Positions 3,795 to 64,000 of a stretch of 64,000 nt of DNA are shown one piece after another. Below the pieces are notes generated by a model that worked only from the letters and a program-made list of their open reading frames with translations, made no database searches and was not told where the DNA came from. Source of the stretch: Myxococcota bacterium (GTDB taxonomy: Bacteria > Myxococcota_A > Polyangia > Palsa-1104 > JAEUJZ01); contig JANWXW010000147.1 in the NCBI GenBank assembly GCA_025057315.1, positions 12,420 through 76,419 of the forward strand. The letters are read 5' to 3'. Within the stretch, counting starts at the first letter, position 1, and each line of letters opens with the position of its first letter. Both the position numbers and the translations under genes were made by a program.

Positions 3795-3802
3795 ACCCTA
3801 CC

Positions 3803-6070: not shown

Positions 6071-6125
6071 GAGCAAGACAGCGAGGCAGCGCGCGCACCC
6101 CACGCGCGCACAGGAGGACAGGACC

Positions 6126-6785: not shown

Positions 6786-6821
6786 CGAGGACGCGACAAC
6801 GAGGACGCCAAGGAGGACGCG
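6779..6821 (+). repeat. three imperfect tandem copies of a 12-14-nt unit (GCGATAACGAGGAC / GCGACAACGAGGAC / GCCAAGGAGGAC) spanning a stop codon and an RBS
   Basis: Read directly from the sequence. The last unit provides the AGGAGG for the 6822 gene. Confidence 0.6.
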
Positions 6822-7562
6822 ATGAAGATCAAGACCACCACCTGCCGGGGTGGCTCGGCCAGCCGCCGCGCCCGCCGGGCCAGGGTGCACGGACCGGCTC
6901 GGCTGGACCTGGCCCACATCCGCGCCTGCATCGGCGAGCTGGCGACAGCGCCCAGCCGGCTGGGACTGGAGGCGCTGTGCCAGGACGACGGCCCGGAGGT
7001 GGAGGCGGTGCTGGACCCAGATGCCCTGCCGGTGGCCCGGGCCTACCTGCGCGCGCTGGCCGGGGACCCGGACGCCACACCCCAGGTGGCAGCGATCGCC
7101 CGGCGCCTGGCCGCCCGCCTGGGACAGCAGCACGAGCTGGCCGGGATCTGCGCTGCCCTGGAGCAGCTGGACCGCGACGCGGCAGACACCGACCGGGAGC
7201 TGGGCCGGCGAGAGCAGGATATGCTCGCCACCCTGGACCGGGTGCTGGGCGGGCTGCTGGACGGAACGCTGGGGAGCCTGAGCCCGGTGGAGCGGGACCA
7301 GCTGCGCGTGGAGGCCGCCGAGGTGCTGGAGCTGCAGGCGGAGCAGCGGGCGCAGCGGGAGCAGGAGCGGCGCCTGACGATCGAGGCCGGACGGGAGGCA
7401 GAGACCCTGCGCCGGGAGGCCGCCCAGGAGGCCGAGATGCTGCGCACCCAGGCCGCGCTGCGGGCCGGACGTCGCGTGGACGAGGAGGCGCTGGACCGGG
7501 CCCTGGCGACCTTCGAGCGGCTCCGGGCGGCACGGACGGGGCCACCCCCCGCCCCGCTGTGA
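6822..7562 (+). CDS. hypothetical protein (coiled-coil, Glu/Arg-rich C-terminus)
   Basis: AGGAGG RBS formed by the last unit of a 3x tandem repeat. 246 aa. Co-oriented with 5333 and 6126 (possible operon). Confidence 0.6.
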   Translation: MKIKTTTCRGGSASRRARRARVHGPARLDLAHIRACIGELATAPSRLGLEALCQDDGPEVEAVLDPDALPVARAYLRALAGDPDATPQVAAIARRLAARLGQQHELAGICAALEQLDRDAADTDRELGRREQDMLATLDRVLGGLLDGTLGSLSPVERDQLRVEAAEVLELQAEQRAQREQERRLTIEAGREAETLRREAAQEAEMLRTQAALRAGRRVDEEALDRALATFERLRAARTGPPPAPL

Positions 7563-7580
7563 GCGCGGCCGCGGCGGCCG

Positions 7581-41521: not shown

Positions 41522-41590
41522 TTCGGAACAGATCGCGCCTTGTGCCGCTGCCTGGGCCAGGCGCCACAGGATGACAGGAGCAGCGTATCG

Positions 41591-43453: not shown

Positions 43454-43489
43454 CCTCCCCACGGCGTAAGAGAGACGATTGAGGACCGC

Positions 43490-44608
43490 GTGCCAGCCGG
43501 AGCCGGGAAGAAGCGCGACTATTACGAGGTGCTGGGCGTCCCCCAGTGCGCGGGGCCGGAGGAGCTGAAGCGCGCCTACCGCAAGCTGGCCCTACGTTAT
43601 CATCCGGACCACAACAACAATGACAAGGTAGCTGAGGAGCGGTTCAAGGAGGTCTCCGAGGCCTATGCGGTGCTGTCCGATCCGGACAAGCGCAGGCGCT
43701 ACGACCGCCTCGGCCACCTGGGGCTGGAGCCCGGCCTGGCCGATGTGCCCGTACCGCCGGTGGACCTGGAGCGGTTCAAGGAACTGTTCGACACCGTCGT
43801 AGGGGATCTGTTTGGTCGCAAAAAGGCATCCAAGGGCGGCGCGGACCTGCGCTATACCCTCGAGTTATCACTGGAGGAAGCCGCGCTGGGCGCGCGTAAG
43901 ACGATCCGTTTTCCCGCACGGGTGCGCTGCCAGCGATGTGATGGTCTCGGCGGACGGGAAGGGGCCGCTGGCCTGCGTGCCTGCCCGGCCTGCCACGGCA
44001 AGGGCGAGGTCAGGCCGGGGAGCGGGCTGTTCTCGCTGCGTCGCTCCTGCAGTGTTTGCCACGGCAGTGGCCGTGTGGTGGCCGAGCCATGCGAGGGCTG
44101 CCGCGGCGAGGGCCTGGTCGACACGGTGCGCGAATTCGAGGTCACCATCCCCCCCGGCACCGAGGATGGCGGAGTCCGCCGGGTACCCGGACAGGGGGAT
44201 GCCGGGCGCTACGGGGGGCCGCCGGGGGACCTGCATGTCATCGTGCGCGTGCGGCCGCATCCCCTGCTGCGGCGTGAGGGGCAGCTGATTACCACGGAGG
44301 TGCCGATCACCTTCGTGCAGGCCGCACTGGGAGCCAACATCGCGGTGCCGACCCTGGATGGGCGGGCAGAGCTGCGCATCCCCCCCGGCACCCAGTCTGG
44401 TGCGGTGTTTCGCTTGCGCGGCCGGGGCTTCCCCCTGGGCCTGGGCTCCAGCCGCCGGGGCGACCAGCATGTGCGGGTGATCGTCGAGACACCGCAGGAT
44501 CTGGATGCAAGGCAGAAAGCCCTCCTGCAAGAGGCGGCGTTGACCGAACAGAACCACCCGCAGATTCGTGCCTTTGCGGAGCAGATGAGCCGCCTGTACG
44601 AAAGATGA
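43490..44608 (+). CDS. dnaJ: molecular chaperone DnaJ
   Basis: GTG start. J domain with HPD (YHPDHN). Gly-rich linker. Four CxxCxGxG zinc-finger repeats. C-terminal substrate-binding domains. Confidence 0.9.
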
Positions 44609-46829: not shown

Positions 46830-46952
46830 ATCGAACTCCAAGTGGTTCTCTAGACAGTCTTGTGGCTTGTGCGCCTCCCTCCTCTTTCTCTACTAGACCG
46901 TGTGCTCTTTGGCGTTGTTGTTAAAGAGTCGTTGAGAATCGTTCTTCCTGTC

Positions 46953-48275
46953 ATGAAGAGGGTTCCATTCTCCTGCCGCAGCGGTGCGTGGGGCGGAGGC
47001 CTTCTGCTGCTGACCGCGGCCATGCTGGCCGGGTGGGGAGCGGCCAGGGCGCAGGGACAGGATCCCCCTCCGCTGACCTTGACCATGGAGGAGGCCTTGC
47101 GCCGGGGCGAAGAGAACGTCCCGCTGCTGGTGCGCGCCCGCAACGAGCAGCTCTTGGTGGAAGCTCGCCGGGCCGGCGCCGCTGTGCTGCAGCAGTTCAA
47201 CCCACTGGTGACCTTCATGGGAGGCTACCGGTACGAGGAGACGTCCACGCCGCCGGCCTCCGGGTTCCAATATCAGCTCCATGTGGAGCAGATGCTGGAG
47301 ATGGCCGGACAGCGCGGCACCCGCCTGCGCGCCGTGGAGGCAGCGGTGGCCGTGGCGCGGGCCAGCACTGAGTATGCTCGCACGCTGATGCGGGCGATTG
47401 TCGGGGGCTTTTATGTTCGCGCCGTTGTCGGTGAGCAGCGGCTGGCCGTGTCGCGCAGCCGAGAGGAGACTGCGCGCCGGCTGCTGGAGTCCGCACGGGC
47501 CCGGCGGGATCTGGGTGCCTCCAGCGAGATCGAAGTCAACCTGGCCCGGATCGAGGAGGGGCGGGTGGCCGCGGAGGTGACGGCGGCCAAGGTGGCGTTG
47601 GAGGCACAGCTCAACGAGCTGCGTGTGCTCTGCGCCATTCCGGCCGGCACGCCGCTGCACCTGCCGTCCTACCAGGGCGAGCCGCCGCCGCTCCCCCCGG
47701 CGTACCGGTCCGTCTCCGCTTTGCTGGATCTGGCCCTGAAGCAGCGCGCGGATCTTCTGGCCATCCGTCGACAGCGCGCGGCGCTGGAGGCCGACCGGCA
47801 ACGCTTGATCCGCGAGGCGCTTCCCAACCCCATCCTGGCCTTTGACCACCAGCGCGACCTGCCGGGTCAGGACTTTTACGGCGGGACCGTGGGCCTCCAG
47901 ATCCCCCTGTGGAACCGCAACCAGGGACCGCTGGCACTGGTCCAGGCCGCCGAGACAGCACGCCGCAACGAGGAGCGGCTGCTGCGGCTCCGCCTCGAAG
48001 CGGAGGTGTCGTTGGCGCTCAATCGACTGATGCTGCTGTCTGAACAGGCGCAGAGCTTTCGCTTGCGGGCACTGCCCCCTGCGGAACAGAATCTGGAGCT
48101 GCTTCAGCGCGGCTGGCAGGCAGGCAAGTTCGATCTGTTCCGGGTCATCGTCGCCTCGCGCGAGCTAGCCGAGACGCGCCTGCGCTACCTGGACATTCTG
48201 GATGACCTTTGGGAGGCGGCCATCGAGCTGGAGCGGTCCGTGGGCCAGCCCCTGTTTTCAGGAGGGTCGAAATGA
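46953..48275 (+). CDS. TolC-like outer membrane efflux protein (CusC/CzcC-like)
   Basis: Start ATG 46953 with signal peptide. Two OEP-like repeats. TGA overlaps the ATG of the next gene (ATGA). Confidence 0.75.
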   Translation: MKRVPFSCRSGAWGGGLLLLTAAMLAGWGAARAQGQDPPPLTLTMEEALRRGEENVPLLVRARNEQLLVEARRAGAAVLQQFNPLVTFMGGYRYEETSTPPASGFQYQLHVEQMLEMAGQRGTRLRAVEAAVAVARASTEYARTLMRAIVGGFYVRAVVGEQRLAVSRSREETARRLLESARARRDLGASSEIEVNLARIEEGRVAAEVTAAKVALEAQLNELRVLCAIPAGTPLHLPSYQGEPPPLPPAYRSVSALLDLALKQRADLLAIRRQRAALEADRQRLIREALPNPILAFDHQRDLPGQDFYGGTVGLQIPLWNRNQGPLALVQAAETARRNEERLLRLRLEAEVSLALNRLMLLSEQAQSFRLRALPPAEQNLELLQRGWQAGKFDLFRVIVASRELAETRLRYLDILDDLWEAAIELERSVGQPLFSGGSK

Positions 48276-49453
48276 GCTTCCCCCGGGTCGCACAGCTCGT
48301 GCAGGCAGCGCTGTGCCTCTGTGTCGGACTGGCTCTGGGGTGGTATCTTGCCCGCCGCAGCAGCGTGGCCGTCCCGCGGCCGCCGAGCGACCCCACCTGC
48401 AACGAGATGCGTCGCGTCTCGCTATCTCCAGCCGCGCTCAAGCACAACCCCATCGAGACCGCGGTGGTTACACGGGTGAAGCTAGCCCGGGACGTCGAGG
48501 TGGTCGGCTCCGTCAGCTACAATGCCAACCATCACGCCGAAGTCGGGCCGCTCATCGCTGGGCGCATCGTCAGCCTGCGGGTGGGCATTGGCGATCGCGT
48601 GAAGGCCGGACAGGTGCTGGCCGAGCTGGAGAGTGCCGAGGTGGGCCAGGCCCAGGCGGCGTACCTGACAGCGAGGGCGACCTCGATGGCAGCGCAGGCC
48701 AACCTGCGGCGCGAGCGCGAGTTGGCGGAGCGCAAAGTATCGTCCGAGCGCGAGAGGGAGCTGGCCGAGGCTCAGGCGGCCACGGAGCAGGCCAACCTGC
48801 TGGCGGCCACCCAGCGGTTGCGGGCACTCGGCCTGCGTCTGGAAGACATCCGTGAGCTGGAGCGCAACGGCGGACGTCCCGGCCGGGTGCCATTGGTTAG
48901 CCCCATCGACGGCACGGTGCTGACCCGGGAGGTGACCCTGGGTCAGGCTGTGCAGCCGGCCACCGATGCCTTCAAGGTGGCGGACCTGGCTCATCTGTGG
49001 GTGCTGCTGGACCTGTTCGAGAAGGACCTGCCCTACGTCCACCGGGACCAAAAGGTCGTGCTGCGCACCGAGGTGTATCCAGGGCGGACCTTCCCTGCCC
49101 GCGTGGCCTATGTCGGGCAGGAGGTGGACGAGCGCACGCGCACCACCCCGGTACGCATCGAGTTCGAAAACGAAGAGGGCCTGTTCAGGCCGGGGCAGTT
49201 CGTAACCGCCACGCTGCTGGGCGATGAGAGCCGTGCGGTGCGTGAAGTTCTGGCCGTGCCGCGTCGTGCCGTGCTGACCGTGGAGGGCAAGCCGCTGGTC
49301 TTCGTCGCCGAGAGCGACGGGACGTTCTCGCGCCGCTCGGTCGAGCTGGGCATCTCGGGCGGGGGGCTGGTCGAAATCCGCGCTGGCCTGGTCGAGGGCG
49401 AGCGCGTTGCCAGCGATGGGGGCTTTCTGCTCAAGAGCGAGCTGCTGAGGTAA
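48272..49453 (+). CDS. cusB: efflux RND periplasmic adaptor (membrane fusion protein, CusB/CzcB-like)
   Basis: N-terminal TM. HlyD_D23 / biotin-lipoyl-like and beta-barrel regions (VGSVSYNANHHAEVGPLIAGRIVSLRV). Confidence 0.75.
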   Translation: MSFPRVAQLVQAALCLCVGLALGWYLARRSSVAVPRPPSDPTCNEMRRVSLSPAALKHNPIETAVVTRVKLARDVEVVGSVSYNANHHAEVGPLIAGRIVSLRVGIGDRVKAGQVLAELESAEVGQAQAAYLTARATSMAAQANLRRERELAERKVSSERERELAEAQAATEQANLLAATQRLRALGLRLEDIRELERNGGRPGRVPLVSPIDGTVLTREVTLGQAVQPATDAFKVADLAHLWVLLDLFEKDLPYVHRDQKVVLRTEVYPGRTFPARVAYVGQEVDERTRTTPVRIEFENEEGLFRPGQFVTATLLGDESRAVREVLAVPRRAVLTVEGKPLVFVAESDGTFSRRSVELGISGGGLVEIRAGLVEGERVASDGGFLLKSELLR

Positions 49454-49456
49454 CCG

Positions 49457-52400
49457 GTGCTGGAGGACCTCGTCCGTTTTTCCGTCCGTCGGCGCGGTGT
49501 CGTCGTCATCCTGGCGATCCTGGTCGCTGCCATCGCTGCCGGGGCCGTGAGCAAGCTCTCTATCGACGCCGTGCCCGACGTGACCAACGTGCAGGTGTCA
49601 ATCCTCACCTCGGCCCCGGGGCTGTCGCCAGCGGAGGTGGAGCAATACATCACCTACCCCATCGAGACGGCCATGAACGGGCTGCCCGATGTGACCGAAA
49701 TTCGCTCCGTTAGCCGGACAGCCGTCTCGTCGGTGACGGTGATCTTCCGCGACCATGTAAACGTGTGGTTTGCGCGCCAGCTAGTCTCCGAGCGGCTGAA
49801 GCTGGCCGAGCTGGACATCCCGCCTGGCTATGGTCACCCCGAGCTGGCACCGGTCAGCACGGGCGTGGGTGAGATTTACGAGTTCTACCTGGAGTCCACC
49901 GATGGACGCCACAGCCCCATGGACCTGCGCACCCTGCTTGATTGGGTGGTGGCCTACAAGCTCCGCTCCGTACCCGGGGTCATCGAGGTAAACGCCATGG
50001 GGGGCGAGGCCAAGCAGTATCAGGTCATCGTTGACCCGAAGCGCCTGGCGGCGTACCGCGTCACGCTCGGGACGATCTACGAGATGCTGCGGCGCAACAA
50101 TGCCAACATCGGCGGTGGCTACATTGAGAAGAACCGCGAGTCCTACGTCATCCGCGGCGAGGCGCAATATCAGGACCCGCGCGACATCGGCAACACCGTC
50201 ATCACCACTGACGAGGACGGGACGCCCGTGCTGCTCAAGCAGCTGGCCACGGTCAAGCTCGGACCGGCGCTTCGGTTTGGCACCGTCACCATGCACGGCC
50301 GCGGCGAGATTGTCGCCGGGACGGTCATGATGCTCATCGGGCAAAACTCGCGCGAGGTGGTCAAAAACGTCAAGAAGAAGCTCAAGGAGATCGAGCAAGA
50401 TCTGCCTGCGGGCGTGAAGCTGCGCTCCTACTACGACCGCGCCGACTTCATCAACCGGATGCTCAAGACGGTGTTCATCAACTTGGCCGAGGGCGCGGCG
50501 CTGGTGGTGCTGGTGCTGTTCCTGACGCTGGGTACGCTGCGCGGTAGCATCATTGCGGCGCTGGCCATTCCGCTCAGCATGGGCGTGGCGGTGCTGGGCA
50601 TGGTGCAGCTAGAGGTCACCGGCAACTTGATGTCGCTGGGGGCCATCGACTTCGGCCTGCTGGTCGATGGTTCCATCGTGATGCTCGAGGCGGCCATGGT
50701 GCAGCTGATCGCGGCACAGGAGCGCCATTCCGTAGACGTGCCAGCGACGGTGGCTTATGCCATGTCGCGCTCGGCGCGGGCCGTCACCTTTGCAGTGGCC
50801 ATCATCATGCTGGTCTATCTGCCGCTGATGGCCCTAGAGGGCGTCGAGGGGCGCATGTTCAAGCCCATGGCCATCACCGTGGCGCTGGCGCTGTTTGGTG
50901 CGGTGGTGTTTTCGCTGACGGTGTTCCCGGCGCTGTCGGCCTTCTTCCTGCGGCCGCCCAAGCACGCGGCGGGCCACCACGAAGCAGGATTCTGGGGCTG
51001 GCTCAGCAAAGGGTACAGCCACCATCTGGAACGCGCGCTGAAGCGTCCGCTCGTGGTGACATCGCTGGCGGTAGGGCTGCTGGCCCTTACGGCCGTGGCA
51101 GGATCGACCCTGGGGGCAGAGTTCGTGCCGCGGCTGGAGGAGGGCCAGCTATCGCTGGACATTCGGCGCTTGCCATCCATCTCTATCAGCGAAGCGCAGC
51201 GCCTGGGCGTGCAGGTCGAGCAGGTGCTGGCTCGCTTCCCCGAGGTCAACTCGATTGTCACCCGCACCGGCCGTCCGGAAGTGGCCACCGAGCCGGTGGG
51301 GCCGGATGAGACCGAGGTCATGGTGCAGCTCAAGGAGAAGGAGGAATGGCAGACGGCTCATGATCTCGACGGGCTGGGCGAGAAGATCAAGGAAGCCGTG
51401 GAGCGCGAAGTGCCGGGCACCTTTGTGTCTGTGTCGCAGCCGATCGAGGACCGCGTGAATCAGCTGCTGGCTGGCTCCCGCGCCGACGTGGTGGTCAAGG
51501 TGTTTGGTCCCGATCTGGCTGTGTCCAAGGGGCTGGCGGACCGCATCGGCGAGATCATGCGTTCGGTGCCGGGCACTGGTGACCTGCGGGTGCAACGAGT
51601 TTTGGGACTTCCTCTGCTCAACGTCAAGGTCGACAGGCTACGCCTGGCACGCTACGGCATCCCCGCGGACGAGGTGCTGGCCATCGTCGAGGCATCGCGC
51701 GTCGGGCGAAATGTCGGCTGGGTGTTCGAAGGGCCACGGCGCTTTGACCTGACGCTCTTGCTCCCCCCTGCACAGCTTACGCCCGAGTCGTTTGGCGAGC
51801 TGCTGGTGGGCACCAGCCAGGGCCAACTCGTCCCTCTGGCGCAAGTTGCTGACATTCGAGAGAGCGAGGGTCCGGCCGTCATCAACCGCGAGGGCCTGGA
51901 GCGGCGCGTGATGGTGGAGGCGAACATCCGCGGTCGCGACCTGGTCAGCTACGTCCACGAGGCGCAGATGCGGGTGCACTCGCAGCTCAAGCTGCCGCAG
52001 GGCTATCATCTGGAATGGGGTGGTCAATTCGAGAACTTCACGCGTGCCAAAAACCGCCTGAAGTTGGTGGTGCCAATGGCTCTAGGCATCATCTTTGGCA
52101 TGCTGTTTCTCATGTTCGGGGATGCCCGCTACGCCGTCGCGGTGTTTGCTTGCGTTCCGCTGGGCGTGGTCGGTGGGGTGTTCTCGCTGCTGGTGCGCGG
52201 GCTGCCCTTCTCCATCCCAGCGGCAGTCGGCTTCATCGCGCTGTGCGGCGTGGCCGTGCTAAACGGCGTCGTGATGGCCTCCGACCTCAAGCGCCGTCTG
52301 GACGATGGCCTTCACCTGGATGAGGCGCTGCACGGCGCAGCGCAGGGCTCCCTGCGGCCGATCATGACCACGGCCCTGGTTGCTGCCATTGGCTTTGTCC

Positions 52401-52573
52401 CCATGGCCATCTCGACGCGTGCGGGGGCCGAAGTTCAGCGTCCGCTGGCCACCGTGGTCATCGGCGGCATCATATCCTCGACGGCGCTCATGCTGTTCGT
52501 GCTGCCGGTTGTACTGCGAAAGCTGGTTCGGCCCTCGGCGCAAGGGAGCCCCGCGCTGAGCACTATGGAGTGA
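49457..52573 (+). CDS. cusA: heavy-metal efflux RND pump, CusA/CzcA family
   Basis: 1038 aa. GTG start ([13 protein letters not shown]). 12-TM HME-RND architecture. Conserved TM4 region ([16 protein letters not shown]). Confidence 0.9.
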
Positions 52574-54053
52574 ACGTACCCAGCAGACAGGCAGCTCCCC
52601 CTTCGGGTAACCCCTTGCGCAAGGGGCGGGTGGTGATGTCGATGCCTGGACGGTGCTGGCTGACGATGGTGGCGGTGTGCACCCGGCCCCGCTCCAGCAG
52701 GCCAGGGGGCAGGGTGATGCTGGTGTTCGCGGTGCGCAGCGTTGCGACCAACGTCCGCCGGGTGTTGCCGTTGTCCTCGAAGAGACGATAGAGAAAGATG
52801 TGATAGCCGGTGGCCCTTCCCGTCGTCGGTGGGCTCCAGCTCAGGGTCGGCGTGTCGCCCACACCGGTCAGGTTCATAAACGCGTCGCGGCCGGCGAGTT
52901 GGGGCCGGACCACGGGACCAACCAGTGGCACGACGGTAGCACCGACGCGGTCCTGTTGAATCGTAAAGATGGCTCCTCGAGCCTGCCCCGCCGCGGCGCC
53001 GGGGAGCTGATAGCTGACCAAGTAGGTGCTGCCGGTGCTCGTCACCACCGTCCAGTCGGGGGAGAAGGGATGGCCATGGACCATCTCGCCGGTCTCAAGG
53101 TCGGTGGCCTCTGGCGAGGGATAGACAGCGGCCAGGATGGCGTGGGCACCGAGGTCACCATGCGCGGCGAGCTTGGGTGCGGTGAGCACCTCGTGGCTCT
53201 GCGAGAACAGGGTCGCCGATGGGTTGACCAGGGTGCGCAGCGCCTCGAACTGCGAGCGCTGCCAGGTGGCGCTGCTGCGGCGGTCCTGGGGCACCGCCCG
53301 GAAGCTGCCCGTGAGCGTCACCTGCTGGCCATCGCCCAGCGAGAAGGACGGCGCGGTATAGATCTGGCCGAGCGCCTGGTAGGCTCTCCCCTGCTGGTTG
53401 ATCCGACCAACCAGGTGGAGCAGGTGCAGCCGGTCGCCCTTGATTCCATCGATCAGATAAGGCTCGCGCGCCCGCGCCCAGTTGACCGACATGCGCAGCG
53501 ACGTCGCGCCAGGGGCCGGCGGATCCACGGCGAAGGCGTCCGTGAACTGGTCCATAGCGCCCAAGGCAGGAACATAGATGGCCAGGTTGTGGCTGGCCTG
53601 CCACGGCTGCATCTGGTCCACCTGGAACGTGATGAGGGTCGGGCTGATGGTCGGCCGGACACGATCGGGGCGGCCAAGCAGGACCTGGCCAAGATCGAGC
53701 ATGCGCGCGGACGTGACGATGTAGGTCGTGCCAAATTTGAGATAATAAGTAGTCATCGGCACGCCCAAGATCCGGAACGTCCCGTCCGCTGTCCCGCTGC
53801 CAGCGATGCGCCTGAACCCGCCACCTTCCACGGGCACCAGGGCCGCGATGTCCACCGAGCGGAGGTCGCGCGGCAGCTCGACGTCGCCCTCGAGGGTGAT
53901 GTAGGTGTCGATGGCGGTGCCGCTGACCTGCTGCAGTTCGCCGCCGCCGTCGGGCTCGCCGCCGCCATCGGGTTCGCCGCTGCCCTCGGACGGCGGGGGA
54001 CAGCCGGTAAGGCCGAGCAGCATCCCAGCCAGAGCACAGCACAGGGGCCTCAT
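52563..54053 (-). CDS. hypothetical lipoprotein
   Basis: Signal peptide plus lipobox (LLGLTGC). Gly/Glu/Pro/Asp linker. 496 aa, mostly beta-rich. 11-nt convergent overlap with cusA. Confidence 0.5.
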
Positions 54054-54101
54054 CTGCAGGTCTCCTGGGGGTCCAACCCCATTTTATCCTGTCAGGCTCT
54101 G

Positions 54102-57100
54102 TCAGGGAGACAGGGGAATCACGGCCGCGCTCTCCTCGGCGGCATCGACCTGGCGAGCGTAGGCCACAAACTCGTCGTATTCAGCCGGCTCAACCCGCCG
54201 GGCGGGCAGGAAAAACTCGACATGGAGGCGCAGCGTGCTGCCCTCCAGCACCACTTGCTGGCAGAAGCGACCGAAGGTCGACAGGCGAACCTCGGGCCCT
54301 GCCCGCACTGGGCCCACGCCCCGGGGGAGCTCGACGCGTGCCTCCAGCACTACGGGCACGACGTAGCCAAGTTGGAGGGGAGAGCGGCGCGTCGGGACAC
54401 CCACATACCTTTTGGCCAGCAGCGCGGGAAAGGGCGCCGGCAGGACCAGCTCGGTCCGTCCCTGGGCCATGCGGCGCCGCGCCAGCCGGGGCGCACGGAA
54501 GGCGTACTCGACGACAAGCGGCGCGTCGTCCTCCCGCGGGCCATGGCGCAGCTGCTCCAGTGTGGCCCCCGGAAAGAAAAAGCCCAGCAAGCGCTGCTCC
54601 ACCTCCTTGTGGAACTGGTCGGCAGAGAGGCGGTCCAGTCCCTCTCGCCACTCCAGGGCCGGCCAGCCCGTGAGCCGCTCGCGCACCTGGACCTCCCCGC
54701 CCCCGTCCAGCCCCAGGCGCATGGTCATTTCAATCTGGCGACCGTCCCGCGGGATCGACAGCCCCGGCACCAGGCCGCCACCCTCCTCGGGCAGTGCCAC
54801 CTTGCCCAGCAGCGCAGCGGGTGGTCTGCTCTGCCCCAGCTGGCCGATGCGCAGGGCCGTGCCGCCACGCAGCAAGGGCCGCACCAGTCCCGTCGGAGCA
54901 TGACGGTACGCGGGATCCAGCCACAGGAGGGGATGGCCATCCGGGCCCTGGCCCGGCGCCACGGCAAGCAGCACCTCGCTGTACAGCTCGGTGGGAGGCA
55001 ACGGTCCGTCCAGACGGGGCGCGGTCACGGGACGTACGAGCCACAGCTCGACGGGAATCCCGGCCAGACGCAGCAGCGCCGCGGTCAGCAGGTGAGCGTT
55101 GCCTTCGCGCCGTGCCAGGATCGACGTTGCTGCCTCGTCCATGTCGCCGCCTGGCTTGATGGCGCGCCGCACCCAAGCGTCGATGCGTCGGACCTGCGAC
55201 ACCACACCGGCGATCCCCGTCGGTCCCACGGGACCAATGGCCTCGGCAGCAGCACGGCGCAGCTCGGCGTTGGCGCGCAGGCTCAGAAACCACCGGTCGC
55301 GCAGATAGTCGCGCCAGCCCTGGAGCGTCACGCCAGAGGCCACCCGCACAGACGGGACCCACTCTGCCAGCAGCGCCTCCGCCTGGGGCAGGTCAAGCTG
55401 AAGCCGCGGCACGCCCCGACGTGCCCAAAGGCTATGGCGCAGGTCTCCGTGTCGCTCCACCTGAGCCTGGGGTGGATCGGGCCCGCGCAGGTCGATCTGC
55501 AGCGGCATCTCCCAGGGCGTCACCAGCAGGTACTCGGTCCGGTCGAGCGCCGCATCCACCGAGGCAAAATAAAAGCGCTCGGCGAGGAACCCACCGCCGA
55601 AGGCTGCAGCTGGCTCCTCGCGGTCGATGTACTCGAACTCGACGTAGTCGCCGGCTTCTAGATCGGGTGCCGAGATGCTGTCCTTGTCTGCAAATTCCTC
55701 GGGCTCGCGGGTGGTGCCATCGGCCTTCACCGTGCGCAGGGTCAGCACCTCGGCCCCCTCAGGGAGCCGCACCTCGCCGAATCGGTCGATGCCGTCCTTG
55801 GACAGCACATGCACGATGTTGTGCGTGAGCGTCCATCGCGTCCCGTCGGGAAAGACACGGACCACCGTGCGATCGAGGACGATGACGGCGGCATCCTGCG
55901 GTGCCGTCGCCGAGCGCCGCTGGTGGTACTGTTGGATGACCTCCTGCCCGTCGATGCGGTATGCTTCCATAGGCGGTGGCACACCGAGCACCTGCAGGGC
56001 CCGATGGAGATCCTGGGATGCAGGGGCATCAGCCAAGCCCGCCCGCAGCACCGCCTCTGCCTCCTGGGATCGGCCCTGGTCGAGCAGAACATTGGCGAGG
56101 TGGACACGGTAGCCAGGGGTGGAGGGCGAACGACCGACCAGGCGCCGCAGGCACCGCTCGGCTGCAGCCAGCTCCCGCCGGGCCACGAGCACCTCGACCA
56201 ACGATACCAGAAGAGCCTCGTCATCTGGCCGGAGGCGGAGCAGACGCTCGTATTCGGCGCGCGCCTCGACGAGCCGGCCCGCGGCGCGCAGCTCCTCGGC
56301 GTATCGCTCGGTGTAAGGGTTGCATGCTGCCAGCTGGCGCGCTGCCTGCAGCGCGCCGCGTTCGTCTTTGATATCCCGGCGCGCTTCGATGCGTGCCTCC
56401 CAGGTCTCGCACGCCGATGGGGCCAGGGCCAGCGCCTCGTCCAGGGCCTGCTCTGCCTCCAGCGTCCAACCCCGTGACCGCAAGATGTGGTGTCGCAGGA
56501 GCAGCGCTTGCCAGGCCCGTTGCTGGCTGGCCGGTCTTGCATCGAGAATCTCGAGCGCCAGCTCGTCGTGATCGTCGTCGTGCTCCAGACGAGCGAGCTG
56601 GATGCGCGCCCGCAGCAGGGCGGGGTCGGCCTCCAGGGTGGCGCCCAGCAGGCGGCGGATCTGATCGCGTACGATGCGGGCCGGGCGACTGCTGTCCTCG
56701 GCAAGCAGGGCCGCCTCCAGCAGGCGCAGGGAGCTCAGGCCCGGTGCACCAGCGCGCTCGGCAGCGCTCAGACCTGCCTCGATGGCTCCCCGGATGTAGG
56801 CCTGCTGCGTCTGGAGCAGGGCGTGCGTGATCACCTCAGCTCGCTGGCGCGGCCTGGGCAGGGCCGACAGCTCCCTGGGCCACACCTGCACGGGGCCGGT
56901 GCTGGCAGCCGGCGCCCGCTCTGGCGGACCATCAAAAAAGCGCGCACCTGGCAGCGACAGCTGCAACCGCGCCCGGCCCCAGGGCATAGAGACCTTGAAG
57001 GCCAGGGCATGCCAGCCACGGGGCGCTCGGATCCACAGCATTCGCCGGCGCTCGGGCTCGGTGTCTACATACCGGATCACCCCGTCCACCGACAGGGCCC

Positions 57101-57890
57101 ACGTCTCGTTTCCGGTCTCTACCGTCAGGGGGAGGGCGCCTCCCGGGAACCAGGTCCAGGCCACGGCATAGACGACACCCCGGCGGCCGAGCGGTCCCTG
57201 CAGCGTCAGCTCGCAGCCGCGGACCTGGTGCCGCACATACCGGATGCGGGACGGGTCACGAGCCGGATCGTCCGGGGCAAAATGCCGCATGAGGTCCACC
57301 CGTGGCAGGTGTCCGTGCGGGCCGGTGCTAAATAGCACCTGTGGGCAGCCGCGGGCAGCATCCACGGCCTCGGCCTCCGCCTCGCGTCGGGCCAGCCGCA
57401 GCAGCTGCGCCGCAAGGGCCGCAAGCAGCTGTCGCGCTTCGATCGGCAGGTGAGATGAACGCCGCCACAGCCGCAGGACGCGCTCCAGATGGTCTCGTTC
57501 TTCGGCTGCCGAGCCGGGCGGCTCGCTGACCAGGGCCAATAGCCGGTGGGCGGCCATCTCCGCCGCGGCAGGTGCCCACGGATCAGCAGCACGGACGCTC
57601 TCCAGCAGACGCAGCCACCCCTGTCGGGCTAGGGCCACCTGCGCGGTATCGTGCGCCCGCAGCGCCAGACCCAGCAGGGTGCGGGCGTCCCGCAGGCCCA
57701 GAGACTCGGCCTGTCGCAGCGCTTCCTCACCAGCCTCTGGTTTGCCCAGAGAAAACTGAATCCAGCCGGCGTCTCGTAGCTCGGCGGGCGAGCCGGCATG
57801 GCGCGAGCCCTGCGGCGCCCGGTCCCTGAGCGACACCGCGGCGCAGCCGCACAGGAACAGAAGAAGCAGGCCCAGGCCGGCTCTACTCAT
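54102..57890 (-). CDS. giant TPR-repeat lipoprotein with DUF3857-like, transglutaminase-like (catalytic Cys lost) and DUF3858-like domains
   Basis: Start ATG 57890 (MSRAGLGLLLLFLCGC), 8-nt overlap with the upstream paralogue. The TGase-core position reads ARREGNAHLLTAALL instead of GDCKDKA. Confidence 0.65.
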   Translation of the reverse strand: MSRAGLGLLLLFLCGCAAVSLRDRAPQGSRHAGSPAELRDAGWIQFSLGKPEAGEEALRQAESLGLRDARTLLGLALRAHDTAQVALARQGWLRLLESVRAADPWAPAAAEMAAHRLLALVSEPPGSAAEERDHLERVLRLWRRSSHLPIEARQLLAALAAQLLRLARREAEAEAVDAARGCPQVLFSTGPHGHLPRVDLMRHFAPDDPARDPSRIRYVRHQVRGCELTLQGPLGRRGVVYAVAWTWFPGGALPLTVETGNETWALSVDGVIRYVDTEPERRRMLWIRAPRGWHALAFKVSMPWGRARLQLSLPGARFFDGPPERAPAASTGPVQVWPRELSALPRPRQRAEVITHALLQTQQAYIRGAIEAGLSAAERAGAPGLSSLRLLEAALLAEDSSRPARIVRDQIRRLLGATLEADPALLRARIQLARLEHDDDHDELALEILDARPASQQRAWQALLLRHHILRSRGWTLEAEQALDEALALAPSACETWEARIEARRDIKDERGALQAARQLAACNPYTERYAEELRAAGRLVEARAEYERLLRLRPDDEALLVSLVEVLVARRELAAAERCLRRLVGRSPSTPGYRVHLANVLLDQGRSQEAEAVLRAGLADAPASQDLHRALQVLGVPPPMEAYRIDGQEVIQQYHQRRSATAPQDAAVIVLDRTVVRVFPDGTRWTLTHNIVHVLSKDGIDRFGEVRLPEGAEVLTLRTVKADGTTREPEEFADKDSISAPDLEAGDYVEFEYIDREEPAAAFGGGFLAERFYFASVDAALDRTEYLLVTPWEMPLQIDLRGPDPPQAQVERHGDLRHSLWARRGVPRLQLDLPQAEALLAEWVPSVRVASGVTLQGWRDYLRDRWFLSLRANAELRRAAAEAIGPVGPTGIAGVVSQVRRIDAWVRRAIKPGGDMDEAATSILARREGNAHLLTAALLRLAGIPVELWLVRPVTAPRLDGPLPPTELYSEVLLAVAPGQGPDGHPLLWLDPAYRHAPTGLVRPLLRGGTALRIGQLGQSRPPAALLGKVALPEEGGGLVPGLSIPRDGRQIEMTMRLGLDGGGEVQVRERLTGWPALEWREGLDRLSADQFHKEVEQRLLGFFFPGATLEQLRHGPREDDAPLVVEYAFRAPRLARRRMAQGRTELVLPAPFPALLAKRYVGVPTRRSPLQLGYVVPVVLEARVELPRGVGPVRAGPEVRLSTFGRFCQQVVLEGSTLRLHVEFFLPARRVEPAEYDEFVAYARQVDAAEESAAVIPLSP

Positions 57891-60800
57891 GGCCCACCAC
57901 CAGCTCCTGCGCCACCGCCGCATCCACCTCGGTGCAGAAGCGCCGGAATGCCTCGTAGTCGGCCCTGGCGATGCGATGGCGCTCGACCTGCAGGTCAGCG
58001 GTGATGACCACCTCGATGCCCTGCCTGCTGCGCTGGCTCGCCACCTCCAGCCAGAAGCGACCAAAGGGCGACTCCAGCCGCTGTGCCACGGGCAGACGCT
58101 TGGGCTGCAGGCCCGGTGGCAGCTGGAGCTTGACCACCTCGATGCTCCGCCACGGAAAGCCCAAAATCAGGTCATGGCTCCGGCGCGACAGGCGGGCGAA
58201 GTTACGCAGTAGCTCCGGGTCTCGGCCCAGGGGCCGCAGCACCAGCTCAGGGCGCCGGTTCGGATCCATAGGGCTGGGCTGCCCCCAGCTTGGTGCGTGG
58301 ACCATCCCTCGCAGCACCACCGGGCGCTCCAGGTCCTCCACGCCGGACAAGCTGACCCGCCTAACCTGTACGCTGGGAAAGTGCTCATTCCATGCCTTCT
58401 CGTAGCGCTCTGCCCGCTCCGCCTCCACCTCGTAATGCTCCCGCCACCGCTGCGCCTCCTGCCCGGCCACCTGCGTCGTCTCAGACACCTCTGCACTGCC
58501 GTCCGGGTGGAGCGCCACGTGCAGTTCCCTCCGCACGACGTTGCGGGCGGCCGGCAGCACCGGAGTTCGGGCCAGGTGGCCCCGTCCGTTCCAGGGCGGC
58601 CGTGGGTCCGACAAGATGAGCACAACAATGTCTTGGTCCTGCTCGGGAAGCTCCTCCGAGCCTGAGAACTCGGCCGTGCCGTCCAAGTACAGTTCCAGCG
58701 CAGGGACAAACACCAGAGCATGGTCGAAGGCGGCCAGCGAGGCCGGTGCCGGCTCGATGTCGCCAGCGCGCCGCGTCCGGGCCAGCACCAGCGAGCTGTC
58801 GATGCCCACCTCACGCAGCATTACCTTGAGCAGCACCGCCTTGTCTTTGCAGTCGCCAAACTTCCGGGCAAACACCTGCGTAGCCTTGTAGGGCTTGTAT
58901 CCGTGGATGCCGAACTCCAGGCCCACATAGCGGGTCTTGCGGACCACCAAGTTGTAGATCGCGCGGACCTTGGCTCGGGCGTCTCGCAACCCGGCCACGG
59001 CAGCCCTGGCGGCAGCTGCGATCTCAGGGCTGCTGCGGAGCTGCTCCTCGACGAGCCCCAAGTACCAGCGGGCGAGGTCCTCCCAGCTCCGCCAGGTCGA
59101 GACGTGCACGAACGAGGCAACCTCTGTGGGGCCGGGCATGTCAGGCTCGTTCTCGATGCGCGGCACACCCCGGGCGCGGAAGCAGTACTCGCGCTCCTTG
59201 CCACCGGCCAGGAGGCGCTCGCTGCGCTCGACGGTCCAGCCCGGCCCCGAACGCGGCGTGTTAAAGTAAAGAGGTCGGCGCTTCACGCTCGGCTCGGACA
59301 CCAGCACCACGTACCGGCTGTCCAGGCGCGGCACCTCCTCTTGCAGCAGGTGAAGGTCGCCAAAGTAGTCTGCCAGCAGGTTGCGCCGGCCGATGTCGGC
59401 GACCACGTACTCGATGTCGATCACGTCGCCGGGCTGCAGGCCAGCAAAGTGCAGAGTCAGGGCGCGCACGTCATAGTAGAGCCGATACCAGGGCTCCGAG
59501 GCGTCTTGCTCCTCCTGCTGCGCCGTCTGCTGCACTTGGCCGTCGGCCTTGTACACCTTGGCTGCCTTGACCTGCACCGACTGGGTCTCTGGAGTGTAGC
59601 GGATCTCGTAGCTGGCGTACTCGCGGGCACCCTGCTCGTCCAGAATTTGCACCACGCGCTGGGTGAAGACCTCCGAGAGGCCGTTGTCATGCACCCGGGT
59701 CACCCTCTGGTCGAGAAGGACCCGCGCCGGGTCCCCTGTGGGGGTGTTTGCTGCTGCCTCGCGAATGAGTCGCCGTACGTCCTCGCGGTAGGCCTGCACC
59801 AGGTCCTCTCCCTGCCGGGCCGCGGGCACAAGGTGGGCCAGGTAGGTGCGCAGCTCGGGGTTTTGCGGGCGCAGCTCCAGCGAGCGCTGCAGCGATGCCA
59901 GGGCCTCCTCGGTGCGACCGAGTCGGCGCAGCAGACGCGCCCGCAGCTCGTGCAGCTCTGGCTCACCAGGGAGGGCCTCCAGAAGGGCGTCCAGCTCGGC
60001 CAACGCCTTGGCCAGCCGGCCAGCCCCCTCTAGGAGCTCGACCCGCTGCTGATGGGCCCAGAGGAGCTCAGGCCAGCGCTGCAGGATGCGCTCCAGCCAC
60101 CCCAGTGCTCCGTCGGTGTCGCCGCGGCTGAGGCTGCGATCCAGCAGCTGCCGGTGCGCCTCCAGATCGTCCGGCTCCAGCTCCATCAGCCGCAGATATC
60201 CTTGCTCCACCTCTTGCATCCGCCCCCGCTGCATGGCCAGCGCCAGGCGTGCCCGCAGCAGCCGCAGCGACCGACCAGGCAACTCGGCCAGCATCCGCTC
60301 CGCCGCGGCGGGCAGGCCCCGATCGGCTTGCAGCTGCGCGAGCTGGATGACCGCTGGATGCAAACTAGGATCCAGCTGCACCGCCTCGCGATAGGCCTGC
60401 TCCGCCAGCCCTTCGCGCTGGGCACTTTCATAGACCTGTCCGAGGGCCAGAAACAGCCGCGCCCACTCTTCAGCGGAGCCACCCGGCAGCGTACGAGCCC
60501 CCTCTAGCACCCATCGGCGATAGTCTAAATCCGCATTGGCCATCGCCAGCAGCCACGCCCCCTCCAGCGTCGGGTCCAACCGCTGCGCCTCGGCAAGCAA
60601 AGCCTCGTGCTGCCGATCCGACTCGTCTTGCGGCATTATATAGAGAAGATAAATTCCCAAATCTCGCAACGCCTGTGACCGCTCTGCATGGGGTGCAGCC
60701 CCAAGTGCGGCGCGCAGCTGGTGCAGCAGGCTCGAGGGACGCACGCGGGCGGGCAGGGCCCGGGGGATGCGCCAGCCCACCTGCGGGGGGCGCTCTGAGA

Positions 60801-61638
60801 AGATCAGACCAGGCATGGGCCTGCCGTCAGGGGTCGTGAGGCGCAGCAGGAACGACAGCGGGCCCTCCCCGCTGGAGATCTTGACCAGGATGCGGTTCCA
60901 GCCCGGAAGCAACGTCGCGCCGCCTACGTCCTGATCGATGCGCAGCGGGCGGTAGACATCGTGGTCGATGACCGGCGGGCCGCGATTTACCCACACCTTG
61001 ATCGGACCGGCCGAGCCGACGCGGACGGCCACGGCGGCCGGTTGCGAGCGATCGCTGCGCACGTAGCAGGCGGCATAGGCCGTGACCCAGCTGTTGGGAC
61101 GGAAGGCGTTGTCGAGCAGAATTCGGCCATCGCGGGCCAGCGCGATCCGGGGCACAGGCCGCCAGGTCGGGGGCAGGACCCGGTTGCGTCCCTCATACGT
61201 GACCCCTGCGCCTGGGATGGCTTCCTCCTGTTCCGGTGGGTAGACCGTGCTGTGGCCGCGCCGGCCCTCGTTGTCGAAGGGACCTATGATCTCGCAGGCC
61301 TGGACCAGGCCCAAGGTGGCGTCAGATGCCGTGCGGGCATCGGGTCCGGCGGGGCGCCATTGCCATAGCAGCGCGTGGGCATAAGCACGCACATCTGGGG
61401 ACAACCTGGGGTTGTCTGCCGCCGCCGCGACCATCTTCCAAAGGGCCTCCCTGTCGTCGACCAGCTCCCATAGTTCCGACAGCCCCAGCAGCGGCACCAG
61501 CCCGGCCGCAGCGTGCGGACGGGAGGTGGCCAGGTGATGCAGGCGCGCCGCTCGGGCTGCCACCTCTCGATCATAGGCAGAGGCACTCGCGGCCACCGGG
61601 ACGAGCAAGGCCAGCAGGGCCAGGGCACGGCGGGGCAT
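57883..61638 (-). CDS. giant TPR-repeat secreted protein with DUF3857-like, transglutaminase-like (intact Cys, KFGDCKDKAVLL) and DUF3858-like domains
   Basis: Start ATG 61638 (MPRRALALLALLVPVAASASA, a signal peptide). Multiple TPR repeats. Transglutaminase-like core with Cys in GDCKDKA. Confidence 0.7.
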   Translation of the reverse strand: MPRRALALLALLVPVAASASAYDREVAARAARLHHLATSRPHAAAGLVPLLGLSELWELVDDREALWKMVAAAADNPRLSPDVRAYAHALLWQWRPAGPDARTASDATLGLVQACEIIGPFDNEGRRGHSTVYPPEQEEAIPGAGVTYEGRNRVLPPTWRPVPRIALARDGRILLDNAFRPNSWVTAYAACYVRSDRSQPAAVAVRVGSAGPIKVWVNRGPPVIDHDVYRPLRIDQDVGGATLLPGWNRILVKISSGEGPLSFLLRLTTPDGRPMPGLIFSERPPQVGWRIPRALPARVRPSSLLHQLRAALGAAPHAERSQALRDLGIYLLYIMPQDESDRQHEALLAEAQRLDPTLEGAWLLAMANADLDYRRWVLEGARTLPGGSAEEWARLFLALGQVYESAQREGLAEQAYREAVQLDPSLHPAVIQLAQLQADRGLPAAAERMLAELPGRSLRLLRARLALAMQRGRMQEVEQGYLRLMELEPDDLEAHRQLLDRSLSRGDTDGALGWLERILQRWPELLWAHQQRVELLEGAGRLAKALAELDALLEALPGEPELHELRARLLRRLGRTEEALASLQRSLELRPQNPELRTYLAHLVPAARQGEDLVQAYREDVRRLIREAAANTPTGDPARVLLDQRVTRVHDNGLSEVFTQRVVQILDEQGAREYASYEIRYTPETQSVQVKAAKVYKADGQVQQTAQQEEQDASEPWYRLYYDVRALTLHFAGLQPGDVIDIEYVVADIGRRNLLADYFGDLHLLQEEVPRLDSRYVVLVSEPSVKRRPLYFNTPRSGPGWTVERSERLLAGGKEREYCFRARGVPRIENEPDMPGPTEVASFVHVSTWRSWEDLARWYLGLVEEQLRSSPEIAAAARAAVAGLRDARAKVRAIYNLVVRKTRYVGLEFGIHGYKPYKATQVFARKFGDCKDKAVLLKVMLREVGIDSSLVLARTRRAGDIEPAPASLAAFDHALVFVPALELYLDGTAEFSGSEELPEQDQDIVVLILSDPRPPWNGRGHLARTPVLPAARNVVRRELHVALHPDGSAEVSETTQVAGQEAQRWREHYEVEAERAERYEKAWNEHFPSVQVRRVSLSGVEDLERPVVLRGMVHAPSWGQPSPMDPNRRPELVLRPLGRDPELLRNFARLSRRSHDLILGFPWRSIEVVKLQLPPGLQPKRLPVAQRLESPFGRFWLEVASQRSRQGIEVVITADLQVERHRIARADYEAFRRFCTEVDAAVAQELVVGHE

Positions 61639-61748: not shown

Positions 61749-64000
61749 TTACGCGCAGCAACGAACGCCGCTCAGAGGGCTCCGTCCCGTGGGAGGGACC
61801 TTGAGCCGAACTGAACATCGCCCATCGGTCTCGCCCTGAGCGGAGCCGCCGCGCAGGCTGCCGGCCTGGGTCCACTCGGAGACGTTGCCAGACATGTCGA
61901 CGGCCCCGGAAGCGGACGTACAGCCAGGACGCGCGCCCGCGGGTAGGAGGACCCCTCCGCGGATGTTACAGATGGCCTCGCGGACGTCGTGGCCGTAGGG
62001 GTAACTGGCGCGGCCCTTACCACGGCAGGCCAGCTCCCACTCGGCATCGGTGCACAGGCGGCGGCCCAGCTTCTGGCAGTGGGCCTCTGCTTCCTTGTGG
62101 CTGAGCCCGGCCAGCGGCCGCTGACCTGCCCCTGGCTGCTCGTAGCGATCGATGCAGAAGGGCTTCGGCCCGGCAACCGCTACCATCCCCTCTGGGCAGC
62201 TGCTCGGAGGGGATGGTGCCGCAGCAACAGGGGCTGGCTGGTGCGAGGGGGCCGGCGTCGGCACAGCAGGGGGGGCAGGGGGCGCATCCGAACGAGAGGC
62301 CGGACTCGAGACGGGGGCTCCAGAGGGGCCGGCAGCCTGGCGAACGGGCGGTCCCTTCAGTAGGGTGACCACCAGGGTCGCACCGAGTGCTCCCACCAGG
62401 GTGGCGATGAGGAAGGCGGCGATGACCACGCGCCGTTGCTGCCGGATGGCCGCCTGCTGGGCCAGCGCCGCCCCTGCCGGGCCGGGGAGGCGGCTGGGCC
62501 TTGCGGGCTCCTGTCCAGCCCGGCGTGGGGGAGCCTCCGGAGTCGGCCGGGCTGCCTCCGCAGCGGGGGGATGTCCGCCAGGCCGGGCCTTGGCATCAGG
62601 CGGGGAAGGGCTGCTGGACCATGCATCCACGGCAGCCTCGCGCTGCCTCGTCGGCGGTGGGGTGTACAGGCCCGTGGCCGCCTCCTCATCATCATTGCGG
62701 TCATTGGGGTCGGGGCCTGGCCGTTGCGAACGTTCCTCCACTGCGGGCATCAGCGGGGGCAACTCGCGGAACGCCAGCACCGGCGCGACCTCCGGATGGG
62801 CTGGCTCGCTCGGGCTGGCCTCCCCGATGAGATCCACCGGTGGGGGGGCCTTCAGGGTGGGCTGGGCGTCGACCATCGTCTCGTCGGACGACAGCCGCGG
62901 CATGGCTGTGCTCGACAGCTCCTCGGGGTCCAGCCGGCTCTGGTCGATCGTAGAGTCGAGGACCTCGGTGCCCTCGCGCGGGGGCACGGCCGGAAGGGGA
63001 GGGGGGCCCACCTGGGCCCCCTCGATGCGCCCAACCGGTATGGTGTGTTGCTCACCGATGTCACTGGGCTCGTCCCGGACGGGCTGCTGCGAGGGCAGCT
63101 TCTCATCGGCTCGCCGGGCTGGCCGGCTGGCCTGCTGCCGGTTGTCTTCTTGCAGTGCCCTGGGCGGCGACGAGGACCGAGGACCCCGAGGCGGCACCGA
63201 GATGCGTGCCGACGGAGAGGAGACCAGCGGCGTCAGCACCACCCCTGCCGGCTCGACGCCCTGGCCTGGCTCCTGAGGGGGGCGGCTCAGTTCCTCCACC
63301 GGCAAACGTCCGGCGGCCACTGCCAGGGCCACTGGCGTGGGGGAGTGACGGCGACGCACCGGCGCGCCCGTCAGAGCCACCGCTTCCACGTCCGCCACCA
63401 GCCCCTCCACCGAGGGGAAGCGCTGCTGGGGATCCGGCTCCAGGGCGCGTTCCAGAACGGACACCAGCGCCGCCTTGTCCTGCTGGAACGACTCCCAGGC
63501 GGCCTCCTCACCCAAGGTCAGCAGGTACCGATACAGCGCAGCGAGGCTGTATACATCCGAACGGGCATCGGGTGGGCGGCCGGTGCGCACCTCGGGGGCC
63601 AGCAGGTGCAGCTCCCCGGCCTTCTGCACGGAGTCCAGGTAGGGCCCGCGCGGCAGGGCGCGTCCCAGGCCCACATCCCACAGCTTGACCCCCTCTGGCC
63701 GCAGCAGGATCGACTCCAGACGCAGGTCGCCGTGGCACAGCAGCTGCCCGTGGATGTAGCTGAGCGCCGAGGCCAGCTGCACACCGATGCGCCGCACCTC
63801 CTCCAATGCAAACGGCTCCCCCTGGGCACGGCGCAGGGCGACCCGGTGGCTGAGCAGCTGTTCCGGGCTTGTGCCTGGGTGCAGCGGTTCCACCAGCACC
63901 ACCTCGGTGCGTCCATCCGGCACGAAGACCTCGGTGGGACGAATCACGCCCGGGTGCTGCAGGATGCGAACCCGCGTCAGCTCTCGCAGCACGTAGGCTC
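61749..64000 (-). CDS. Ser/Thr protein kinase (partial; N-terminus beyond window) with Pro-rich linker, TM helix and C-terminal FGE-sulfatase (SUMF1/EgtB-like) domain
   Basis: Kinase catalytic loop HGDLRLESILL, then DVGLG and APE regions. TM VVIAAFLIATLVGALGATLVV. The C-terminal DMSGNVSEWT is characteristic of the FGE family. Confidence 0.75.
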   Translation of the reverse strand, partial: AYVLRELTRVRILQHPGVIRPTEVFVPDGRTEVVLVEPLHPGTSPEQLLSHRVALRRAQGEPFALEEVRRIGVQLASALSYIHGQLLCHGDLRLESILLRPEGVKLWDVGLGRALPRGPYLDSVQKAGELHLLAPEVRTGRPPDARSDVYSLAALYRYLLTLGEEAAWESFQQDKAALVSVLERALEPDPQQRFPSVEGLVADVEAVALTGAPVRRRHSPTPVALAVAAGRLPVEELSRPPQEPGQGVEPAGVVLTPLVSSPSARISVPPRGPRSSSPPRALQEDNRQQASRPARRADEKLPSQQPVRDEPSDIGEQHTIPVGRIEGAQVGPPPLPAVPPREGTEVLDSTIDQSRLDPEELSSTAMPRLSSDETMVDAQPTLKAPPPVDLIGEASPSEPAHPEVAPVLAFRELPPLMPAVEERSQRPGPDPNDRNDDEEAATGLYTPPPTRQREAAVDAWSSSPSPPDAKARPGGHPPAAEAARPTPEAPPRRAGQEPARPSRLPGPAGAALAQQAAIRQQRRVVIAAFLIATLVGALGATLVVTLLKGPPVRQAAGPSGAPVSSPASRSDAPPAPPAVPTPAPSHQPAPVAAAPSPPSSCPEGMVAVAGPKPFCIDRYEQPGAGQRPLAGLSHKEAEAHCQKLGRRLCTDAEWELACRGKGRASYPYGHDVREAICNIRGGVLLPAGARPGCTSASGAVDMSGNVSEWTQAGSLRGGSAQGETDGRCSVRLKVPPTGRSPLSGVRCCA

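Follow-up and report, generated by a model that had tools for sequence, protein, structure and literature searches.

The window analysed here, a stretch of 64,000 nucleotides (nt) from the Myxococcota contig JANWXW010000147.1 with a G+C content of about 69%, carries on its minus strand two long, overlapping open reading frames (ORFs), referred to below as genes A and B. Both encode large proteins built around a transglutaminase-like core, with the active-site residues Cys, His and Asp kept in A and the Cys and His lost in B. The start codons of both genes were chosen as those giving proper signal peptides. ORFs and starts were read again from the sequence, and the coordinates given by an earlier annotation made from the sequence alone (the original prediction) proved to be exact.

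Gene A: 61638..57883, minus strand, from the ATG at 61638 to the TAG at 57883, 1251 amino acids (aa).
Gene B: 57890..54102, minus strand, from the ATG at 57890 to the stop at 54102, 1262 aa.
Overlap of A and B: 57883..57890, minus strand, 8 nt, ATGAGTAG, containing the start codon of B and the stop codon of A, read directly.
Codon for Cys930, the catalytic Cys in A: 58849..58851, minus strand, in the GDCKDKA motif, an invariant column; position computed as 61638 - 3 x 929.

The lengths of both proteins match NCBI gene calls exactly (P0001 for A and P0044 for B, each 100% identical, from a Myxococcales metagenome-assembled genome). P0001 is labelled "DUF3857 domain-containing protein" and P0044 "hypothetical protein RMK29_15930". 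The TAG/ATG overlap of 8 nt that had been described for the two genes is seen in the sequence as ATGAGTAG, and it is likely to be the site of translational coupling.

A and B had been proposed to be paralogues beyond their tetratricopeptide repeats (TPRs), a claim for which pairwise alignment was the suggested check. A BLASTP comparison of the two proteins gave a collinear alignment of 814 residues that begins in the TPRs and reaches the C-terminus, with an identity of 23% and an E-value of 3e-16. Family alignments were built from 29 A-type and 16 B-type proteins, and their comparison with hhalign gave a probability of 100 and an E-value of 2e-100 over 1113 columns (A 55-1234, B 118-1256). This profile-profile alignment takes in the N-terminal beta-rich domain as well, showing that A and B are homologous over nearly their full length and not only in the TPRs.

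In the core, FGDCKDKAVLL of A aligns opposite REG---NAHLL of B. The motif GDCKDKA ... F[DN]HA ... [LIMY]D[GSAP]T is present in 29/29 A-family proteins of the joint alignment, and Cys930, His973 and Asp986 are invariant in these proteins as well as in the A-type ORFs of related loci (82/82). All members of the B family (16/16) have a three-residue gap at the position of the Cys, reading R-x-G---[NSQRD], and the same three-residue deletion was found in each complete B-type ORF of related loci that was aligned, approximately 55 in number. The His position is occupied by another residue in 16/16 B proteins and His is mostly absent in the wider B set; the Asp is mostly kept. In the B protein of the window the Cys is deleted, the His is changed to Glu and the Asp is retained.

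Since the B core is devoid of any Cys (none between aa 860 and 1010), a shifted catalytic Cys can be ruled out. No Ser, Cys, His, Asp or Glu is conserved in the B core within the 16-member alignment, where the invariant or near-invariant positions are Gly, Leu, Arg and Pro only. The triad in all A-type ORFs and the Cys deletion in all complete B-type ORFs that were aligned thus bear out the view that one copy is catalytic and the other has lost its active-site Cys. Judged by these residues, A is predicted to be a catalytically competent Cys-His-Asp enzyme of the transglutaminase-like superfamily, with a reaction that is most likely that of a peptidase, isopeptidase or amidase, and possibly that of a transamidase. 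B shares the transglutaminase-like fold and descent and, by the same residues, would not be an active member.

The domains of A, and the core of B, are arranged as follows; the domain order of B is the same as that of A.

A, aa 1-21: signal peptide, Sec-type, by-eye reading.
A, aa ~53-109: helical subdomain.
A, aa ~116-281: beta-sandwich.
A, aa ~304-628: TPR array.
A, aa ~638-827: DUF3857.
A, aa ~837-1008: transglutaminase-like core with Cys930, His973 and Asp986.
A, aa ~1021-1250: DUF3858.
B, aa ~838-1030: transglutaminase-like core lacking Cys and His.

The original prediction had described parallel architectures for the two proteins. This holds for the domains, to which a helical subdomain in front of the beta-sandwich has to be added, but the export signals are of different types. 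The N-terminus of A, MPRRALALLALLVPVAASASA followed by YD, is an ordinary signal peptide ending ASA-YD, and that of B, MSRAGLGLLLLFLCGC, is a lipoprotein-type signal (LFLCGC) with the lipobox Cys at position 16. Lipobox Cys16 is kept in 15/16 B proteins. Position +2 of the B lipoprotein signal is Ala, a residue that under the lipoprotein sorting rules would suggest the outer membrane. Two Cys pairs of B, 182/226 and 494/523, are conserved in the 16-member B family and would fit disulfides formed outside the cytoplasm. Signal peptides and conserved Cys pairs in B together would place both proteins outside the cytoplasm: A and B are probably both exported, A appears to be soluble and B lipid-anchored, and an extracytoplasmic site of action is plausible.

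Searches with Pfam gave a graded picture. A matched DUF3857 (PF12969) with 98.7 bits (E 5e-28, gathering score 24.6) and Transglut_core (PF01841) with 34.3 bits (E 3e-8, aa 877-958, cutoff 23), and its DUF3858 match (PF12970, 25.5 bits) was slightly under the gathering score of 27. B matched only TPRs and, under the threshold, DUF3857 (22.8 vs 24.6 bits), a domain through which the profile alignment of A and B runs; neither PF01841 nor DUF3858 was matched by B. Of the three families expected from the first reading of the sequence, PF01841 and PF12969 were therefore confirmed for A, PF12970 stayed below threshold there, and B showed PF12969 alone, also below threshold. Within the B family, 14/16 members matched DUF3857 at E <= 0.01, and DUF3858 was matched by several A homologues and by 2/16 B homologues. 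Weak matches of homologues in the N-terminal beta-sandwich (RhaB_D2 4e-5, BiPBP_C 1e-6, PA14 0.18) are weak hints at carbohydrate-binding-like folds.

Structures were predicted with AlphaFold from the family alignments, using trims of 1200 residues (A aa 52-1251, B aa 63-1262). The models reached a predicted local distance difference test score (pLDDT) of 89.5 and a predicted template modelling score (pTM) of 0.65 for A, and a pLDDT of 89.8 and a pTM of 0.84 for B. Both show a common order of helical subdomain, beta-sandwich, about 14-16 TPR-like helices, beta-domain, alpha/beta core and beta-domain. When the models were compared with the PDB using Foldseek, the best match for the C-terminal halves of both proteins was 3KD4, with an E-value of 2.6e-26 and a template modelling (TM) score of 0.81 (target-normalised) for A and an E-value of 9.5e-17 and a TM score of 0.68 for B; all other matches were TPR proteins. 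3KD4 is BDI_1141 of Parabacteroides distasonis, described as "putative protease", and its DUF3857/Transglut_core/DUF3858 fold resembles the C-terminal ~600 residues of A and B. Both models superpose on it over about 630 alignment columns. The C-terminal half of A, used as a single sequence, found no match in the PDB; an A-family profile of six sequences matched 3KD4 by sequence with an E-value of 1.2e-21, and the A-family profile also aligns to residues 409-501 of 3KD4.

Constraint on the two proteins was measured as mean pairwise identity per domain in 47 loci in which both proteins are complete.

Transglutaminase core: identity 0.52 in A and 0.25 in B, ratio B/A 0.47.
DUF3857: identity 0.36 in A and 0.35 in B, ratio B/A 0.96.
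Other domains: ratio B/A 0.68-0.87.

The core is the most conserved domain in A but among the less conserved ones in B. Because the core of B drifts about twice as freely as that of A while DUF3857 is equally conserved in both, selection acts on B, though not for catalysis. These identities indicate that B is freed from the catalytic constraint and that the constraint on its DUF3857 is fully kept.

To assess how widely A and B occur together, one genome per GTDB species was scanned, which yielded at least 594 confirmed A-type matches, and the best 80 loci were kept. B-type genes were called by scoring stop-to-stop ORFs with hidden Markov models (HMMs) of the A and B families, and synteny was counted in the 68 loci where 3.6 kb or more of sequence follows A. 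A B-type ORF lies directly downstream of A on the same strand in 55/68 loci. Most of the best 80 A loci are from Myxococcota, and others are labelled Acidobacteriota, Planctomycetota, Verrucomicrobiota and Bradymonadales. Conservation of the tandem, proposed as a check within Myxococcota, was thus found there and reaches several phyla. The stop codon of A and the start codon of B overlap in 51/60 junctions, by 4 nt (ATGA or GTGA) in 48 and by 1 nt in three; in the other nine the two genes are between a few and about 70 bases apart. The peptides that follow the B starts are signal peptides, with the lipobox mostly present in Myxococcota. Judged by the layout of the genes alone, the active and the inactive paralogue would be expressed together. 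Members of the family are frequent in Myxococcota and Acidobacteriota of soils and sediments, as well as in Bacteroidota of the gut.

The genes on either side of the pair had been suggested to be functionally linked to it.

Predicted lipoprotein of 496 aa: 52563-54053, minus strand, 48 nt downstream of B.
Fusion of a Ser/Thr protein kinase with an FGE-sulfatase-like domain at the C-terminus: 61749-63992, minus strand, upstream of A on the same strand.

This suggestion is not supported, since neither gene is kept alongside the pair. For the 496-aa lipoprotein, Pfam, NCBIfam and PADLOC gave no match and a tblastn search of 83 related loci gave no relative; it is an orphan gene that is possibly co-transcribed with A and B. 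The PADLOC defence models likewise gave no match for A or B. The kinase-FGE protein found only sporadic generic matches in the same 83 loci and is not conserved with the pair. The listed ORF begins 8 bases from the end of the window and already within the kinase domain, at position 46 of the Pfam profile, so that the window may have cut off the N-terminus. All-against-all clustering of flanking ORFs brought up lineage-restricted neighbours only; those that were scanned encode an iPGM, a FliN-domain protein, kinases and an NtrC-type regulator, and they were rejected as parts of the system. Since the flanking genes differ between lineages, the conserved unit is the A-B pair alone.

A scan for promoters and terminators between 52300 and 62100 was uninformative. 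The 48 nt that separate B from the lipoprotein gene include, at 54066-54081 on the plus strand, a short hairpin rich in G+C with a T-run after it, oriented against those two genes. The orphan lipoprotein gene is met from the other side by a converging RND efflux operon (46860-52573, plus strand) encoding an outer-membrane factor, a HlyD-type adaptor and an AcrB-type pump, and the ORFs of pump and lipoprotein have 11 nt in common at the 3' end of each. Further away in the window, dnaK and dnaJ adjoin each other (41540-44608, plus strand), and a 970-aa protein (29666-32578, plus strand) joins PA14, thrombospondin type 3 repeats and a segment resembling a MetA-pathway outer-membrane channel, an unusual combination.

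We favour, with moderate confidence, the interpretation that A and B form a self-contained exported envelope module, in which A would be the active enzyme and B its non-catalytic, membrane-anchored partner. The invariant triad in A, the loss of the Cys in all B proteins and an overlapping tandem that is kept across phyla all speak for the enzyme/pseudo-enzyme pair that the original prediction had put forward. B would be an ancient duplicate of A that has lost the nucleophile and has kept the fold, the full length and a constrained DUF3857, and it would be made from the same mRNA as A by coupled translation. Held by its lipid anchor, B could anchor, target or regulate A, as a scaffold, targeting or regulatory subunit. 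We infer that the two proteins associate, probably as a pseudo-symmetric heterodimer, with the beta-sandwich and TPR arms presumably binding substrate or partners.

Several observations weigh against this interpretation. A occurs alone in 13/68 loci, mostly from Myxococcaceae (for example L020, L021, L027, L031 and L034), and in L001 B is separate from A and stands alone elsewhere in the genome, showing that A and B need not be coupled in cis. The Cys-bearing proteins of a Minicystis-type subgroup (P0026-P0029, 24-26% identity to A) have their own lipoprotein-type N-termini and stand alone, so that the enzyme can exist without an adjacent B; locus L058 of Minicystis rosea has no B-type gene downstream. 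The signal-peptide calls on A and B are by-eye readings of the sequence made with no predictor, and full-text searches for functional work on DUF3857, DUF3858 and BDI_1141 returned none, with only incidental mentions of DUF3857 and DUF3858. Such searches for "transglutaminase-like" together with Myxococcus gave nothing relevant. The idea that A turns into a lipoprotein wherever B is absent was considered and dropped as a general rule: the A signals of Myxococcaceae are ordinary, as far as a noisy heuristic can tell, and the idea fits only the Minicystis-type subgroup.

The unlinked genes of the Myxococcaceae would also suit two proteins that act independently, with B a stand-alone binding protein (a lipoprotein receptor or adaptor working through TPR and DUF3857) that shares the operon through tandem duplication and forms no complex with A. 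The DUF3857 of B does have invariant residues of its own. We consider such independence unlikely, because adjacency with overlapping stop and start codons has been kept across phyla though all flanks have changed, a pattern that would be difficult to account for if no functional or stoichiometric link joined the two. That link could be antagonistic, with B a dead decoy or inhibitor that holds the substrate or blocks A in the manner of an immunity or latency factor. Co-translation at a fixed ratio would serve this purpose, and the substrate-side DUF3857 of B is as conserved as that of A while its core drifts. Inhibitors and immunity proteins known so far tend to be small, however, whereas B keeps all of its 1260 residues including TPR and beta-sandwich, and some lineages have an A with no B next to it; an antagonist is improbable on these grounds.

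The remaining explanations concern B itself. Its DUF3857 contains invariant polar residues (D673, H690, E706, R719, K722, D724, K736, S740 and D748) that might belong to an enzyme with another nucleophile or pocket. We give this very little weight: no catalytic role is known for the beta-sandwich domain DUF3857, and the core of B has no Cys, is conserved only at Gly, Leu, Arg and Pro positions and reaches half the conservation of the A core. The loss of the catalytic residues, together with single-sequence Pfam matches that exceed the threshold for TPR families only, could suggest a functionless, decaying duplicate, a pseudogene in the making. Such decay is effectively refuted by conservation. 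In 55 loci, which come from several phyla, A is followed by a B frame that is intact and of full length, the AlphaFold model has a pLDDT of 89.8, and a decaying copy is ruled out because the DUF3857 constraint, lipobox Cys16 and the Cys pairs have been kept.

Relatives of the pair were found outside the families that were aligned. 3KD4 itself lacks a catalytic Cys: in the profile alignment RkfGDCKDKA of A aligns with SAYGTPLEIA of 3KD4, so that GTPLE stands opposite GDCKD, and the three-residue deletion of B is absent. The Bacteroidota relatives of 3KD4 are about 650 aa long and lack the ~630-aa extension of helical subdomain, beta-sandwich and TPRs that is present in A and B. In two independent loci on Bacteroidota metagenome contigs, a Cys-less relative of 3KD4 is encoded 6-30 nt downstream of a ~650-aa protein with DUF3857 and Transglut_core.

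L084: Cys-bearing gene 3641-5596, followed by the Cys-less gene 5603-7197.
L086: Cys-bearing gene 4004-5971, followed by the Cys-less gene 6001-7696.

The upstream gene has an intact triad in both loci (GVCKD ... FNHC ... LDPT). This arrangement shows that the tandem of a live and a dead copy is present in Bacteroidota too, in a short form. Membership of the Bacteroidota Cys-less proteins in the B family is unsupported by the HMM scores, and they do not have the three-residue deletion. Between the Bacteroidota and Myxococcota lines the Cys may have been lost either once or twice. Two proteins of about 2020 aa, P0030 and P0032, were looked at as possible fusions of A and B; they contain instead a single catalytic module at the N-terminus (DUF3857, transglutaminase core with YGDCKDKA, DUF3858), behind which helical repeats extend over about 1350 residues.

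A and B belong to a known, uncharacterised family that is already annotated at the domain level. By the searchable literature, what appears to be new is the conserved, translationally coupled pairing of a live and a dead copy, the domain-specific constraint in the dead copy, and the recognition of 3KD4 as the dead member of such a pair. A broader proposal can be made tentatively, and we hold it to be more doubtful than the module suggested for A and B: the DUF3857-transglutaminase-DUF3858 module might be a general, obligate heterodimer of a live and a dead subunit from Bacteroidota to Myxococcota, and a new class of envelope-anchored cysteine peptidase, isopeptidase or cross-linking machine. 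Both subunits would then have gained their beta-sandwich and TPR arms for envelope or extracellular substrates in Myxococcota, Acidobacteriota and Planctomycetota. The only structure solved in the family, 3KD4, is that of a dead member, and the conserved pair gives a concrete, testable model for it; the pairing may explain why the catalytic Cys is missing from a protein labelled as a putative protease. Should the pair act on the cell envelope, social and predatory bacteria would have a new enzyme system in their envelope biology, and there would be a bacterial example of a pseudo-enzyme that partners its active relative.

The role suggested for B resembles in concept that of the lipid-anchored TPR proteins that serve as non-catalytic partners of envelope hydrolases, as in LbcA-CtpA of Pseudomonas and NlpI-Prc of E. 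coli. LbcA (7RQF) was among the TPR structures matched by the B model in Foldseek. The comparison is an analogy only, with a likeness limited to the TPR fold, since in these systems adaptor and protease are unrelated and the protease is a serine peptidase, whereas B is a full-length paralogue of A. The transglutaminase-like superfamily (PF01841) comprises transglutaminases, peptide N-glycanase, the pseudomurein endoisopeptidases PeiW and PeiP, and bacterial TgpA. None of its characterised members is known to have flanking DUF3857 and DUF3858 domains, a TPR extension or a co-translated dead paralogue. A shares with this superfamily the order Cys...His...Asp, with the Cys in G-x-C-K-D-x-A. Inactive transglutaminase-like members are known from eukaryotes, in Rad4/XPC and in erythrocyte protein 4.2, and the loss of the Cys in B, a structural paralogue of the enzyme, parallels that in protein 4.2 and Rad4.

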